NCBI GenBank assembly: GCA_045539335.1
Contig: JAZQFD010000025.1
Location: forward strand, 35,545-99,544
Direction of reading: 5' to 3'
DNA from: Eubacteriales bacterium
GTDB lineage: Bacteria > Bacillota > Clostridia > Oscillospirales > QAKW01
DNA length: 64,000 bases
Shown: positions 201 to 56,160 of the stretch, one piece after another
How positions within the stretch are numbered: the stretch's first letter is position 1
How the letters are laid out: the number at the start of each line of letters is the position of its first letter
Made by a program: the position numbers and the translations under genes
Notes under the pieces: generated by a model
The model's input: the letters and a program-made list of their open reading frames with translations, nothing else
The model's database searches: none
What the model was told of the DNA's origin: nothing

Positions 201-480
201 TGTGGCACCCTCCGTAAGGAAGGTGCCACAGTTATATTCGCCTTACGGCGAGTGATATTGCTTCGCAGTGATATGATGCTTCGCATCGTGATATTGTCCT
301 TCGGACAGTTTAAGAGGCGAATATAATATCACTTTTGCGTGAGCAAAAATATCACTTGACCGAAAGGTCAAATATAACTGTGAGATCTGTCTCACAATAT
401 CACTTATTTTAGTTCTGTTTTGAGATAGGTATTGTTTAAAAGTATATAACCCACTATAACACTTTCAACTGATGAAAGTG
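201..480. repeat. Multi-hairpin heptamer element, copy A (terminal hairpin, 4x GTKATAT, 4x ATATMAC, conserved tail)
   Basis: Hairpin TGTGGCACC..GGTGCCACA 201-230; heptamers at 231, 252, 268, 288 and complements at 326, 349, 372, 397, each separated by a short hairpin; tail 435-468 is 31/34 identical to the reverse complement of 52058-52091. Confidence 0.85.
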
Positions 481-25585: not shown

Positions 25586-25614
25586 TTGACATTTTTTTGG
25601 TGGAGTGCTACACT
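25586..25614 (+). promoter_or_regulatory. SigA-type promoter of the cobalamin riboswitch leader
   Basis: TTGACA-17 bp-TACACT with TG extension. Confidence 0.65.
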
Positions 25615-25619
25615 TGGGA

Positions 25620-25775
25620 AGGAAACACGCCCAAGAACAAGGAAGTGGGGTGAGAATCCCCCGTGATCCCGTCGCCGTGTTTGGCAAGGAACTGCTCAAA
25701 AAACCACTGCCCGAAAGGGTGGGAAGGGGAGCGGAACCGCTTGAGCCATCAGCCGAAAGACTTCTCTTGGGATGT
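25620..25775 (+). ncRNA. Cobalamin riboswitch
   Basis: AAGGAA..GGTGAGAATCC..CCCG, CCACTG..GGGAAG and B12-box-like AGCCGAAAGAC; precedes B12-uptake-type genes. Confidence 0.85.
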
Positions 25776-25895
25776 CGGATCTGCTGTTACGATGAATAAC
25801 CGTTTTTTAGGGCCTCCTTTGGCAGAGAGGTGGGCCTTAAAAGATGAAAGAAGCGTATCCGAAGGGTTTCTAAAAAAAGAATAAGGAGAAAAAAG

Positions 25896-36208: not shown

Positions 36209-36306
36209 TCCAGCGGGATGCGAGATCTGCACGGCGAAGACTTCTTCTTCGTTCCAAAGACAACTCCCCGTTCTTCGGACACGTGACCCACAAATCTCTA
36301 CTCTGT
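36209..36306 (-). ncRNA. THF (tetrahydrofolate) riboswitch
   Basis: Minus strand reads CAGAGTAG..GTG..AACGGGGAGTTG..ACGAA..GCATCCCGCTG; its 3' end overlaps the folT RBS, suggesting translational control. Confidence 0.85.
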
Positions 36307-36323
36307 GTACGCAGCATATCATA

Positions 36324-49543: not shown

Positions 49544-49747
49544 GGCGTTGTACCCGTAAGGATACAACGCCAGTTTTATTCGCCTTGCGGCGAGTTATAT
49601 TGCTTCGCAGTTATATTCGGCTAAAAGCCGAGTGTTATTCGCTTTGCGAGTTTTATAGGCGAATAAAATATCACTAAAACCATTAGGTTTTAATATTACT
49701 TTTGATTTATCAAAAATATCACTGTGAGACTTGTCTCACAATAGCAC
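49544..49747. repeat. Multi-hairpin heptamer element, copy C
   Basis: Same order of parts as copy A; long stem TTTTATTCGCCT 49574-49585 / AGGCGAATAAAA 49657-49668; TGTGAGAC..GTCTCACA 49723-49740. Confidence 0.85.
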
Positions 49748-49777
49748 TATTAAAAAGTATTTTATTTTGAGGACAGT

Positions 49778-49813
49778 AAAAAAGCTGTGTAGAAATTTTC
49801 TACACAGCTTTTA
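49778..49813. terminator. Bidirectional terminator hairpin
   Basis: AAAAAGCTGTGTAGAA..TTCTACACAGCTTTT. Confidence 0.7.
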
Positions 49814-50588: not shown

Positions 50589-50735
50589 AATACAAATGAA
50601 TTGTATCGATCAAAACAAAATTCCGCTCTTTAATACAAATGAATTGTATCGATCAAAGCAAAGCTTTGTTCTTAATACAAATGAATTGTGTCGATCAAAA
50701 CAAAACTCTGCTCTTTAATACAAATGATTTGTGTC
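50589..50735. repeat. Tandem array of 4 palindromic ATACAA-N5-TTGTRT sites, 42-43 bp period
   Basis: AATACAAATGAWTTGTRTC at 50589, 50632, 50674, 50717 with related spacers. Confidence 0.9.
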
Positions 50736-50741
50736 GGAGGA

Positions 50742-50770
50742 TTGCGTTTTTGGGGGCGGCGGTGTATAAT
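50742..50770 (+). promoter_or_regulatory. SigA-type promoter of the XRE-lipoprotein operon
   Basis: TTGCGT-17 bp-TATAAT with TG extension; GGAGGT RBS at 50781. Confidence 0.6.
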
Positions 50771-50792: not shown

Positions 50793-51098
50793 ATGGCGGC
50801 AAAGATCTTCAGCAAACGGTTAAAACAATTGCGGCTTGAAAAAGGCGTCACTCAAAAACAAATGAGCCAAGACCTGCGGATGGCAGACAGCTATATTTAT
50901 AATATTGAAGCAGAATACGCCTATCCCTCCATGACTCAGTTTTTTGCCATTTGCGAGTATCTGGACATCTTGCCCTCCGATTTTTTGCAATTTGAGCCGG
51001 AGACTTCGGCTAAAGAGGATGAATTATTGGATGCCGTGAAGGGTTTTAGCAATGAGAAGATGGATCGGCTGATCTGCATAGCAAAGGAGTTGCAATAA
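50793..51098 (+). CDS. XRE family helix-turn-helix regulator
   Basis: RLKQLRLEKGVTQKQMS..YIYNIE..PS..ICEYL. Confidence 0.88.
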   Translation: MAAKIFSKRLKQLRLEKGVTQKQMSQDLRMADSYIYNIEAEYAYPSMTQFFAICEYLDILPSDFLQFEPETSAKEDELLDAVKGFSNEKMDRLICIAKELQ

Positions 51099-52045: not shown

Positions 52046-52322
52046 GACACTTTCAAATTGAAAGTGTCATAGTGGGTTCCATACTTTTAAATTATACATC
52101 CAAAATGAATCGGGCGATATTGTGAGACGGGTCTCACAGCGATATTTTCTTTTGAAAAAGAAAGCGATATAAAAGCCTTTGGCTTTTGCGATATTATATT
52201 CGTGCTCTTTCGCACGGCGCAAGCCGTATATCGTGCGGTTTACCGCATATCGCAACGAATGTTATATCGTTCGGGCGAAGCACGAATATAGTTGTGGCAC
52301 CTTCCTTAAGGAAGGTGCCACA
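52046..52322. repeat. Multi-hairpin heptamer element, copy D (inverted relative to A)
   Basis: 4x GCGATAT from 52114, ATATCGY repeats, long stem 52195-52206 / 52279-52290, terminal TGTGGCACCTTCC..GGAAGGTGCCACA, tail shared with copy A. Confidence 0.85.
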
Positions 52323-52334
52323 AAGGGCGTCATT

Positions 52335-52667
52335 TTATTTTACTTTAAAGACCCGCAGGGGCTTGCCCTGCTTTTTGCAGTTTTCAATCACAAAGCGGGT
52401 GCCTCGGGACTCCCCGTCCCAAAAGGCCAGCACCTGATCGGCATAGTCGATAATGGTTAGGTTTCGCCTAAGAGGCGCTCCTCTGCCGAATTGCTCATAA
52501 TCGGGCAAAAATTCCGTCAGCTTCAGTCCGTGGGCTTGGGCGTAGCGGCGGGCGCATTGGTCGATGCCCCGGGCGCCGCCGGAGACGATCTCGGTAACCT
52601 CTTTGGGCAGATAGGGAGAAAAATCCTCTACCGAAAGACCCCGAGAGCCGATGATGGCCACTTTCAT
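52335..52667 (-). CDS. SLOG superfamily (YspA/DUF2493-like) protein
   Basis: IIGSR, IVSGGARGID, GAPLRRN, AFWDGESRGT. Confidence 0.8.
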   Translation of the reverse strand: MKVAIIGSRGLSVEDFSPYLPKEVTEIVSGGARGIDQCARRYAQAHGLKLTEFLPDYEQFGRGAPLRRNLTIIDYADQVLAFWDGESRGTRFVIENCKKQGKPLRVFKVK

Positions 52668-53782
52668 TTTTGGTCGCCTACCTTTAAGGTATAGTCGCCT
52701 AAAATGGTACCGTCGGCTTCATTGATCACCGCATGGATTTCGTTTTCCGAGATGGTATAGGCGGTTCCCGCCAGCGCCAAAGAGGCTTTTTTCAAGGGCT
52801 TACCGCCCACAATGATGGGGCAGAACTGACCCAATTGATCCAGCTCGCCGCCCTTTTCAAACAGACCCACCTTATGGGTGTGCCCCGCAATAAAGAGCTC
52901 CGGCTGAATATGCTCCCCGATCAGTTGGCACCACTCGGTATAGAGCTCCTGCTCAATGTCAAAGGGCGGGGGAGAAACATGGCTGAAGGGGGCGTGGCAG
53001 ACCACAAATTTATGCTGTACGCCGGGGGCGTTGTATTCCTCGTCGGCTCGGGCGATCACCTCTTTGATAAATTCCGTTTGCGCCAAGCGGAAGGGATGGT
53101 AGCAGGAGGTATGGCCGTAGGCTTCATAAGAATCGTCCTTATCCTCGCCGCAATCCAGGCAGATGCCCCAAATGTCGCCCAAGCGGAAGGTATAATAGGT
53201 GCGACCCTCCCGATGGGGGCAGTATTCCCCGAAATGCTCCCCGTAGAAGCCTCGGGTATCGTGGTTTCCTCGGGTGAAGATGGAGGGCATCTCGCCCTTG
53301 CCCAAGGTGCCGGAAAGGCGCAGCATCTCTAAAAGATATTCCCGCTCGCCGCTATGATTGGGAATGTCGCCGTTTAAAATAAGGCCGTCGTATTGAGGCA
53401 TATGTCCTGCCGCCTCAATGGCCAGATCGATGCAATCATGCACATCGGAAAGATGATAAAACCGAGCGGTGCCCGAAGGGATGGGGCGGAAGGTGTAGGG
53501 AATCTCCACCGTATCCTCCGAAGGAGGATCATAGGGCGGCCGCTCCGGCATATGGCGGTAGCAAACGGTATAACCGCCGGCGGCATCCAGCTTTTCTTGG
53601 GGCACGTACACCCGATGCACCTTGCAATCGGTTTTCATTACGCCGGCAAATTGATCATAATAGGTCTCCTCACCCACCTTTACCCAAAAGAGGGTGGGCA
53701 CATCAAAGGGAACCATGATCTGATATTCCCGATCGAAAATATAAACAGTAGGGGGATAGAGCATATGATTCGGTGTGTTCAT
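52664..53782 (-). CDS. Calcineurin-like metallophosphoesterase
   Basis: SDVH, NGD, RGNHD, H, GHTH motifs. Confidence 0.88.
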   Translation of the reverse strand: MNTPNHMLYPPTVYIFDREYQIMVPFDVPTLFWVKVGEETYYDQFAGVMKTDCKVHRVYVPQEKLDAAGGYTVCYRHMPERPPYDPPSEDTVEIPYTFRPIPSGTARFYHLSDVHDCIDLAIEAAGHMPQYDGLILNGDIPNHSGEREYLLEMLRLSGTLGKGEMPSIFTRGNHDTRGFYGEHFGEYCPHREGRTYYTFRLGDIWGICLDCGEDKDDSYEAYGHTSCYHPFRLAQTEFIKEVIARADEEYNAPGVQHKFVVCHAPFSHVSPPPFDIEQELYTEWCQLIGEHIQPELFIAGHTHKVGLFEKGGELDQLGQFCPIIVGGKPLKKASLALAGTAYTISENEIHAVINEADGTILGDYTLKVGDQK

Positions 53783-53848
53783 AAAAAACTCCTTCTGCTT
53801 TAATGCGTGGCAGGCTCGACTCTCCACGCATTAAACAGTATACCACAC

Positions 53849-54820
53849 TCAGCCGAAAAAAGGAAGAAGCAAAAAGAGTTTTGTAAAGAAAAAGGCCAAA
53901 AGCCCGCAGGCGGGAAAGGTCAGCAGCCATGCAAGCGCCATGGAGCGGGCGATGGCGCCGTCCACTTTTCCTTGAGGGTGCCCCAAGGCGGCGCCCATCA
54001 TGGCGCAGGTCTTGGCATGAGTGGTACTGACGGGAAGCCCCTGCAGGGTGGAGAGCAAAAGGCTGGCCGCTCCCGCCAGATCGGCGGCAAAGCCCTCTTT
54101 GGGGGAAAGCTGCACCAGCTCATTGCCCACCTTTCGAATGATCCGCCCACCGCCGCAGAGAGTACCCATCCCCATAACGGCACTGCAAAGAACCATGGTG
54201 GCAGAAGGGATGGCCTCGCCGCTCACCACCAAAAGGGCGGCAAATTTGGGGGTGTCCTGAAGACCGTGGGCAAAGGCCATAAAGGCGGCGGCCACCCGTT
54301 GCCCCTTTTTCCAAAAGGCAGGGGAGGGGGTGCGCTTTTGAAAGTAGGCGGAGATGGCCCAGCCTCCCAAAAAGCCAAAGACCACCGAAAAAACCAGTCC
54401 CACCAAAACCTTTAAAAGGGCCACCGTGGAGATTCCGCCTGCATTCAGCGCCAAGGCGCCGCCCATCAGCGCCGCCATCAGCCCATGGCTTTCGCTGGTG
54501 GGGATGCCAAAGACCCATGCCGCCACCGCCCAAACCACCACCGCCAAAAGGCAGGCGGAAACGGCCACCGTCCCTCGGGTGTCGGCAGGAAAATTGCCCA
54601 AAGCCCCCATGGTTCTGGCCACCTGCTGACCCATGCTTAGGGCGGCAATGCCCCCTAAAAGGTTCATAAGGGTGGCCAGCCATACCCCTTTTTTCATGGA
54701 AAAGGCGCCGCTTCCGATGGCGGAGGCAATGGCGTTGGGAGCATCGGTCCAGCCGTTTACGAATAAAACCCCCAGCACCGCCCAGGTTTGGATCACGTTC
54801 CATAAATTCAATGAGATCAC
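53849..54820 (-). CDS. pit: Inorganic phosphate transporter (PiT family)
   Basis: NGWTDAPNAIA, PTSESH, AHGLQD, PVSTTH. Confidence 0.9.
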   Translation of the reverse strand: MISLNLWNVIQTWAVLGVLFVNGWTDAPNAIASAIGSGAFSMKKGVWLATLMNLLGGIAALSMGQQVARTMGALGNFPADTRGTVAVSACLLAVVVWAVAAWVFGIPTSESHGLMAALMGGALALNAGGISTVALLKVLVGLVFSVVFGFLGGWAISAYFQKRTPSPAFWKKGQRVAAAFMAFAHGLQDTPKFAALLVVSGEAIPSATMVLCSAVMGMGTLCGGGRIIRKVGNELVQLSPKEGFAADLAGAASLLLSTLQGLPVSTTHAKTCAMMGAALGHPQGKVDGAIARSMALAWLLTFPACGLLAFFFTKLFLLLPFFG

Positions 54821-54880
54821 CTCAAAAAAGTTTATGAACGGGCGGCGATGTTAAGACCCTCTTTCCTCAACGCTGACGTC

Positions 54881-55070
54881 AATGCAATTCATTTGTATTT
54901 AAATGCGCAACAGAGCGGCGGTAATACAATTCATTTGTATTGGTGGCCGCAAACGGAGGTTTTCGATACAAATGAATTGTATCGAAGACATGAAAGGGAG
55001 GGGGGCAATACAAATGAATTGTATTGACGGATTACAATTGTGGGAGGGGTTGATACAAATAAATTGTATT
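54881..55070. repeat. Array of five 19-bp palindromic repeats with unique 23-26 nt spacers
   Basis: Repeats at 54881, 54923 (reverse orientation) and 54965, 55007, 55052 (forward); same core as the 50589 array. Confidence 0.9.
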
Positions 55071-55102
55071 GCGGGCAAAAAAAGAGAACCGCTAAGCGGT
55101 TC

Positions 55103-55273
55103 TCATAGGATTTCATAGGTAAAGTTTTCATAATGCAGGCGGGTGCCGATATCACAGCCCTCGGGGAGCAAGGCCATGGCAATAAAGAGATCTTCGGAGC
55201 ATTGCCCGCTCTCATCCCGCAAATACGCATAATCCCCTTCAATTTTGATTAAAATATAGTTTTTTTCAAACAT
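55103..55273 (-). CDS. Small hypothetical protein (DUF3006-like pattern)
   Basis: IEGDYAYL..IAMALLPEG..G..L; GGGAGG RBS; terminator hairpin ~55077-55104. Confidence 0.7.
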   Translation of the reverse strand: MFEKNYILIKIEGDYAYLRDESGQCSEDLFIAMALLPEGCDIGTRLHYENFTYEIL

Positions 55274-55347
55274 TGCAAAACTCCTCCCTTCCTTCATATG
55301 TCCACCAATAAAATGTGCCTGAAAACCGAGGATATTCTACAATAACA

Positions 55348-55836
55348 TTAGGTTTGGTCAATTCTTATATCAATAGACTTAAATTCATGTACTTTTGCGT
55401 ACGCATAACCATCTGATTTTTTTATATAATCAAAAAAATTTTCGTCAGAATCATCGCTCCACAAAGTATCTTGTAAAAAACGATTTTCTTCATCAGGAGA
55501 GAACATTATACTTACTCGTAGCTGAAAATATTCATCTTCCCCATCAGGATATTGTCTTACTAAGTCATAGTAAAACAAATCTTTCCCCGTAAAATCATAA
55601 ACACCATACTCGCTTAATAAAAGGTCTTCTTCAATAGGGGTTTTACACATTTCTTCGAATACATTTATGATTTCGTCCAACGATTTATTAATTGAAATAT
55701 TACTCTTCAAATACTCTAATAATTCCATATTATTTACCTCGTGATTTACATTTAAACTTGTATTTTCATTTAGGTTACAAGCGGAAAGTCCAAAAATCAG
55801 TATTAAACACAAGAGAAAAACTGCAATTTTCTTCAT
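55348..55836 (-). CDS. Hypothetical lipoprotein, AT-rich
   Basis: MKK..LSAC lipobox; visibly lower GC than neighbours. Confidence 0.72.
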   Translation of the reverse strand: MKKIAVFLLCLILIFGLSACNLNENTSLNVNHEVNNMELLEYLKSNISINKSLDEIINVFEEMCKTPIEEDLLLSEYGVYDFTGKDLFYYDLVRQYPDGEDEYFQLRVSIMFSPDEENRFLQDTLWSDDSDENFFDYIKKSDGYAYAKVHEFKSIDIRIDQT

Positions 55837-55883: not shown

Positions 55884-56047
55884 CAATGCGAAGCATTGTA
55901 TATCATCAATTCCGCAAGGAATTGCATATCATCATTGCGAAAGAGTTTTTGATACACACCTTTGGTGTGATGAAATACAAAGGCGGTGTGCCGCCTTTGA
56001 TGATATCCAGCCTAACGGCTGATGATATGCCATTGCTTTCGCAATGG
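55884..56047. repeat. Multi-hairpin element variant F (ATATCAT/ATGATAT linkers)
   Basis: Six short hairpins linked by TATATCAT/CATATCAT then ATGAAAT/ATGATAT. Confidence 0.7.
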
Positions 56048-56049
56048 AT

Positions 56050-56084
56050 AAAAAAAGAACGAAGCATTCGCTTCGTTCTTTTTT
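56050..56084 (-). terminator. tRNA terminator
   Basis: AAAAAAGAACGAAGC-ATTC-GCTTCGTTCTTTTTT. Confidence 0.8.
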
Positions 56085-56160
56085 GGTGGAGACAACTGGA
56101 ATTGAACCAGTGACCCCTTGCATGTCAAGCAAGTACTCTAACCAGCTGAGCTATGCCTCC
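56084..56160 (-). tRNA. tRNA-Val(GAC)
   Basis: GGAGGCATAGCTCAGCTGGTTAGAGTA-CTTGC-TTGACAT-GCAAG..GGTTCAATTCC..CTCCACCA; TTGACA-17-TAGAAT promoter upstream. Confidence 0.97.

Follow-up and report, generated by a model that had tools for sequence, protein, structure and literature searches.

The window, the whole 64,000-nucleotide stretch of DNA analyzed here, contains an array of five short palindromic copies placed between pit and a terminator-like hairpin (Table 1). The copies are 19 nt long and start 42, 42, 42 and 45 nt apart, separated by spacers of 23, 23, 23 and 26 nt; the first two are in reverse and the last three in forward orientation. Both the coordinates and the orientation flip agree with the first-pass annotation, which had been made from the letters alone. 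An exact 17-mer occurs in copies 2–4, and copies 1 and 5 differ from it by one mismatch each. Allowing up to three mismatches, the window contains 17 strand-matches to the 17-mer where 0.18 would be expected, and none of 100 shuffled sequences reaches 17, which excludes a chance origin of the copies. The five palindromes are real but imperfect: 7-bp arms flank a 5-nt centre, ATGAA, with an A/A mismatch. The spacers show no detectable kinship, as had been claimed (12 pairwise shuffle tests, p 0.026–0.89, none surviving correction). They were also described as GC-richer, which holds in comparison with the repeats but not with the contig (50–61% versus 50.6%).

Table 1. Features of the window that are discussed in the text.
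Feature	Position	Strand	Remarks
Gut-1 RNA	229–299		Rfam
dnaA	4821–6194	+	origin-region marker; 46 kb from the sister array and 50 kb from the focal array
Cobalamin riboswitch	25598–25783		Rfam
THF riboswitch	36209–36307		Rfam
Sister array	50589–50735	+	four sites, period 43/42/43; near-identical tandem spacers; directly 5' of the XRE promoter
Predicted XRE promoter, sigma-70 type	50742–50770	+	TTGCGT-17 nt-TATAAT; found by script, below the scanner threshold
XRE-family helix-turn-helix protein	50793–51098	+	101 aa; predicted site binder
pit	53849–54820	−	PHO4 phosphate transporter; neighbour of the focal array
Focal array, copy 1	54881–54899	−	one arm mismatch
Focal array, copy 2	54923–54941	−	exact 17-mer
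Focal array, copy 3	54965–54983	+	exact 17-mer
Focal array, copy 4	55007–55025	+	exact 17-mer
Focal array, copy 5	55052–55070	+	central base changed; 45 bp past copy 4
Intrinsic-terminator-like hairpin	55084–55104	−	closes the upstream gene
ORF	55348–55836	−	162 aa; lipoprotein-like N-terminus; no Pfam family; other neighbour of the focal array

The array is not the sole one of its kind; the first-pass annotation made no mention of the sister array in the same window. A genome-wide scan for the 17-mer, a check proposed in the first-pass annotation, found 12 strong sites in three clusters: the focal array, the sister array 5' of the XRE gene, and three copies on contig C10 between pckG (a name read from the translation) and a convergent gene. 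A matrix scan added no weaker sites to these: the 12 alone exceed 27 bits, and the next scores 18, within the shuffled range. The spacers of the sister array have a mean identity of 0.79. An invertible segment between the two arrays of the window was considered and rejected: the sole related-strain joint carries letters of a C10 spacer, which indicates a mis-mapped contig and gives no evidence of inversion. Word shares were below 0.25 in all 24 sequencing runs, and a contig from run X1 covers positions 52293–55298 with 105 substitutions and 32 gaps; the rows listed do not resolve the array. Two other repeats of the window are separate observations. An unrelated family of ~180–250 bp (49560–49780 and 52060–52310) has more than a dozen copies in the genome, shows very high contig depth in gut metagenomes and has no Rfam match. 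Beside tRNA-Val (56084–56160), a 30-nt inverted repeat (55890–56050) recurs in partial form on three further contigs of the genome, and many metagenome contigs match there.

Relatives retain an 11-bp core of the site, CAAWTGAWTTG, flanked by arms of 3–4 bp that differ from species to species. A pair pattern matched 8 of the 301 genomes of the order: seven in the genus and one outside it, the latter with a single pair. The 49 genomes of the family are cleanly divided by a 13-bp pattern. Site-rich are 21 of the 30 genomes of the genus, with 10–231 sites each; site-poor are nine genomes of the genus (0–2 sites) and 19 of other genera (0–6 sites). On the pit tree the site-poor genomes are scattered, so that at least three changes are needed. 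A scan of all species genomes for the exact arms, which is blind to other arm types, recovered six stretches, all in Clostridia MAGs. A phage origin was rejected: the pair pattern gave four viral stretches, each with a single pair and without a common context, and of 122 viral candidates none could be confirmed as a relative of the XRE protein. Distal clusters of the relatives are intergenic, of mixed orientation and without common neighbour genes, and many of them lie between convergent genes, like the C10 cluster. Most homologous arrays contain tandem-duplicated spacers, often 0.8–1.0 identical; the arrays likely expand by tandem duplication. In one stretch (L021, 1–1567), 63 exact cores of several arm types occupy 1.6 kb, with spacing alternating between 24 and 17–18 bp.

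The first-pass annotation had left two branches open: a phased protein-binding array, or an unrecognised repeat-spacer RNA array, that is, an orphan CRISPR-like locus cut into guide RNAs of ~42 nt. The unique focal spacers of nearly constant length fit the second branch, and the region folds far better than shuffled sequences (z about −9 to −10). However, this folding is due to the inversion of the copies and is similar on both strands. CRISPR repeats are about 23–55 nt long. The focal array shows none of the marks of such loci (one-orientation repeats of typical length, foreign unique spacers, cas1): its 19-nt copies face both ways, the orientation of arrays relative to the XRE gene also varies among loci, and homologous arrays mostly have the duplicated spacers described above. 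The search of the spacers against phages and plasmids, likewise proposed at first pass, gave no match better than E=7, and within their own genome they have no match under five mismatches. There are no matches to cas1, the cas gene searched, in this 94% complete genome, and no Rfam family matches the array. Guide RNAs are thus a very improbable explanation of the locus.

The protein-binding branch is supported by the structure of the sites and by their spacing. The core is a dyad about a single central base pair, and the site resembles the operator of phage 434. In a set of 550 distinct sites, A/A is the most frequent inner pair (286 sites); this mismatch would not pair in a hairpin, which favours a double-stranded dyad. 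G-U pairs are rare (2–9%) in the first three arm positions of these sites, and symmetry falls to background 4 bp outside the core. In 4 of 12 genomes the symmetry does not exceed that of shuffled sites, and the arms found repeatedly there are not complementary; in 6 of the 12 several arm types occur together, each site being symmetric beyond shuffling. The coexistence of symmetric arm types is not explained by one loosely specific dimer; it could reflect unseen paralogs, legacy specificities or hairpin-templated repair.

The sites are phased along the helix. Modal periods of 85 arrays peak at 23–24, 31, 41–44 and 52–53 bp, and the peaks near 31, 42 and 53 bp correspond to whole helical turns. 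For the 61 arrays with periods of 28–60 bp, the mean cosine at 10.5 bp is 0.49, which none of 20,000 uniform draws reaches; the genomes studied are kin, so this and all other p values given here overstate significance. In the focal array the sites and their spacing appear to have been kept while the spacers diverged. Together with the phasing, this points to selection on binding.

The linked XRE gene, 4 kb from the focal array, supplies a candidate protein. Its product matches Pfam HTH_3 and HTH_19 above cut-off; no NCBIfam family scores above cut-off, and a search of the protein Atlas returned generic helix-turn-helix clusters only. The structural model (pLDDT 86) consists of a five-helix XRE domain followed by two further helices, which most members of the subfamily share; the C-terminus is short and net-acidic. 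A 69-aa form without these two helices (L081, L082, L071, L197, L198) is accompanied by arrays and arm types of its own and occurs in up to three paralogs per genome. Taking E below 1e-20 as the limit of the subfamily, we found it in 19 of the 21 site-rich genomes of the family and in none of the 28 site-poor ones. Profile searches of nine site-poor genomes and of the two site-rich exceptions, which are 80% and 85% complete, gave the same outcome. The tree provides three independent pairs for a contrast, none of them opposing the association, a number too small for significance.

The search for the subfamily returned 41 matches, and 30 loci were fetched, 23 with close and 7 with distant relatives of the protein. 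Exact cores lie directly upstream of the gene in 21 of the 23 close loci; the remaining two are a one-mismatch variant array and a locus without upstream DNA. Three further close loci likewise carry arrays. No cores were found at distant XRE genes, either within the family (0 of 7) or outside it (0 of 15). Five metagenome relatives were examined. One is close and has an array; another is also close, 67% identical to the XRE of the window, and has no array in the 880 nt upstream; a third is distant and has a single core. The neighbours of the gene vary with the species and include recA, pckG, a MATE gene and a hydrolase, and the array travels along with the gene. In 13 of the 21 XRE promoters that were found, the last site lies 7–12 nt before the −35 box, and in the window the last core of the sister array ends 10 nt before the promoter.

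The arms of distal sites mostly follow those at the XRE promoter of the same genome. Across 16 genomes the mean match is 0.56 against 0.13 when permuted (0 of 20,000 permutations), and in this genome 13 of 14 half-sites match the promoter arms; in G199, G018 and G004 the distal arms are unlike the promoter arms. The matching could also stem from copying of a master array. In one post hoc contrast between the recognition helix and the arms (p 0.02), all 5 of 5 lineages with an acidic or amide residue at one helix position have A adjoining the core, and 2 of 9 with K or N. However, an identical helix triplet is paired with four different arms, so any protein-DNA code must be weak. A strict helix-to-arm code is not supported: two lineages with an 'AD' helix share ATA arms, but the backbone of the tree does not place them.

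The solved structures nearest to the XRE model are C.BclI, C.AhdI, SinR and C.Esp1396I, and controller-protein structures superpose on it with an rmsd of 1.1–1.5 Å over ~65 residues. The HTH_3 fold and the palindromic site beside the gene's own promoter are those of an XRE/Cro regulator. With the restriction-modification controllers C.Esp1396I, C.AhdI and C.BclI and their C-boxes the system shares the small XRE fold, the reading of bases from the start of the recognition helix and an operator directly 5' of the protein's own promoter, both described for C.Esp1396I (PMC3488213). R35, T36 and R46 are the base-reading residues given for that protein (PMC3488213); the variable helix positions of the XRE proteins, before an invariant tyrosine, align by eye with R35 and T36. 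Controllers have two adjacent operators, whereas the arrays here have three to dozens of sites 31–53 bp apart, many of them far from the XRE gene, and most members carry the two extra C-terminal helices. No restriction or methylase gene was recognised by eye among the neighbouring ORFs of the loci read.

The sites, their phasing, the genus-wide linkage to the XRE gene and the bias towards the origin described below are best explained by an autoregulated XRE protein with dispersed operator arrays and a possible role in organising the origin side, an account we regard as somewhat more probable than its rivals taken together. The focal feature is real and is not CRISPR; most likely it is an array of operators belonging to an XRE system specific to the genus. 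Its five sites, four helical turns apart, would likely be bound by dimers of the protein, which would likely control its own promoter through the identical sites of the sister array. That this protein binds the sites is, judged from sequence, quite probable. It is also quite probable that each dyad of 17–19 bp is the operator of one dimer, that the dimers line up on one face of the helix and that the site adjoining the −35 box sets expression.

The focal array could instead be the operator of pit, with the XRE protein an ordinary transcription factor of small regulon. The array ends 60–80 nt upstream of the pit start, past the terminator, and in three species a site with the arm type of that species precedes pit. 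However, of the 30 pit loci fetched, two lack upstream DNA and 25 of the other 28 have no core. A site at only 3 of 28 loci makes an operator role unlikely, which leaves the regulation of pit suggested at first pass weakly founded. A sigma-70 promoter for pit was looked for beside the array and not found, no common target genes appear among the clusters, and the placement of the C10 cluster and many others between convergent genes does not suit an operator. We consider this explanation improbable; pit is probably not a specific target. An element containing CATA, common to most pit orthologs, directly precedes the ribosome-binding site (54810–54830; L124–L149); we presume it to resemble the −10 box of a sporulation sigma factor.

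A somewhat less improbable alternative, though still an unlikely one, treats the sites as selfish or neutral palindromes of the REP/BIME kind, which would multiply through duplication, gene conversion or a trans-acting enzyme yet to be identified. The XRE gene would then depend on the promoter copy alone, and the symmetric arms would come from hairpin-templated repair. REP/BIME and STAR-type false CRISPRs are likewise clustered short intergenic palindromes with duplicated flanks, patchy among species and easily taken for CRISPR (PMC3733652, PMC5294841). The wide range of copy number, the intergenic distal clusters with unrelated neighbours and all orientations, and the mixed symmetric arm types in half of the 12 genomes agree with such an origin. 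So do a CGTC flank on two of the five focal copies and the exchange junctions that lie at arrays in G011 and G014: these genomes differ by a reciprocal rearrangement with junctions at arrays near recA, pit and the XRE gene (L159, L158, L161, L162). However, REP tags show no conservation: of 614 sites, 10 carry CGTC and 16 carry GTAG, and in this genome 2 of the 12 sites are tagged. This genome also has no Y1 transposase. In the genus, 10 of the 21 site-rich genomes and 2 of the 9 site-poor ones encode such an enzyme, and none of the ten Y1 loci fetched has a core. The lack of a Y1 transposase here, of a linked one in the genus and of the tags led us to reject a RAYT partner for the repeats. 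The weakness of single hairpins (−1.2 to −3.9 kcal/mol), the conserved centre with variable arms, the helical phasing, the linked regulator gene and the conservation of focal sites between diverged spacers are also unlike REP/BIME.

Within the autoregulated XRE system, the position of the distal arrays on the chromosome bears on what they do. The origin contig of this genome, 114 kb long, carries two of the three clusters (p 0.01), and the 318-kb terminus contig has no sites. In G324, 6 of 10 clusters (p 2e-5) and 29 of 56 sites are on the 107-kb dnaA contig, and there are zero sites in 320 kb spanning the GC-skew switch that marks the terminus. The dnaA contig carries clusters in 7 of 10 assessable genomes, the exceptions being G199, G007 and G018. 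Of 77 array loci of relatives, 70 could be mapped onto this genome, and the origin contig received 19 of these where its length predicts 4.3, a comparison in which the loci are not independent and gene conservation is not controlled for. Because repeats break assemblies, long contigs are site-poor partly by construction, and the absence from the terminus, seen in the two genomes tested (G324 and this one), may reflect this assembly bias. A further point against the account is that this genome already encodes two members of the ParB family, one of them probably noc; outside the window, ~28 kb from dnaA, the two genes lie together with a pair of perfect parS-like sites (G000 C25:11159–13796).

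The idea of a chromosome-organising array near oriC, raised at first pass, has some support in its position, with dnaA 50 kb off and an origin bias in most tested relatives, and less in its function. The distant arrays, including the focal one, may help to organise the origin side of the chromosome; we hold such a role to be possible, with the odds somewhat against it. The same tentative standing applies to distal arrays as high-capacity platforms that would titrate the XRE protein and, near the origin, bridge the DNA or mark it, instead of serving as operators of neighbouring genes. Slightly more doubtful is a new kind of module in which the autoregulated protein would coat phased arrays dispersed across the origin half and excluded from the terminus, and would bridge them into a domain resembling a centromere, the recognition helix and dozens of scattered sites being re-tuned jointly in each species.

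Known chromosome-domain systems offer partial likenesses. Noc with NBS and SlmA with SBS also have palindromic sites for one binder that are scarce around the terminus; Noc is described with ~70 and SlmA with 24–52 sites, not in phased tandem arrays (PMC4726725). Noc and SlmA belong to the ParB and TetR families, whereas the linked protein here is an XRE. RacA with ram and RicO with ricS share with the present system a helix-turn-helix protein and origin-proximal sites. They differ from it by a MerR- or MarR-like domain with a coiled coil, a membrane helix in RicO, and non-palindromic ricS (bioRxiv 10.64898/2026.03.06.710092), in contrast to the XRE fold, the two short acidic helices and the palindromic sites found here. 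By analogy, the system would work like a controller-protein switch and be distributed like the sites of Noc and SlmA or of RacA and RicO, while apparently belonging to none of these groups.

No XRE regulator is known to us whose sites form phased arrays of 3 to ~70 across the chromosome. No description of such arrays was found among the matches listed in a literature search that covered sources outside subscription journals and supplements, the latter a possible place for repeat catalogues. A false CRISPR call is replaced here by a testable protein-DNA system, whose arrays are found at one or more junctions of rearrangements between species. With its ~25 XRE variants and their differing arms, the genus is a natural panel for work on the evolution of helix-turn-helix specificity. 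Should the arrays organise DNA near the origin, a new protein family would join the known markers of chromosome domains.
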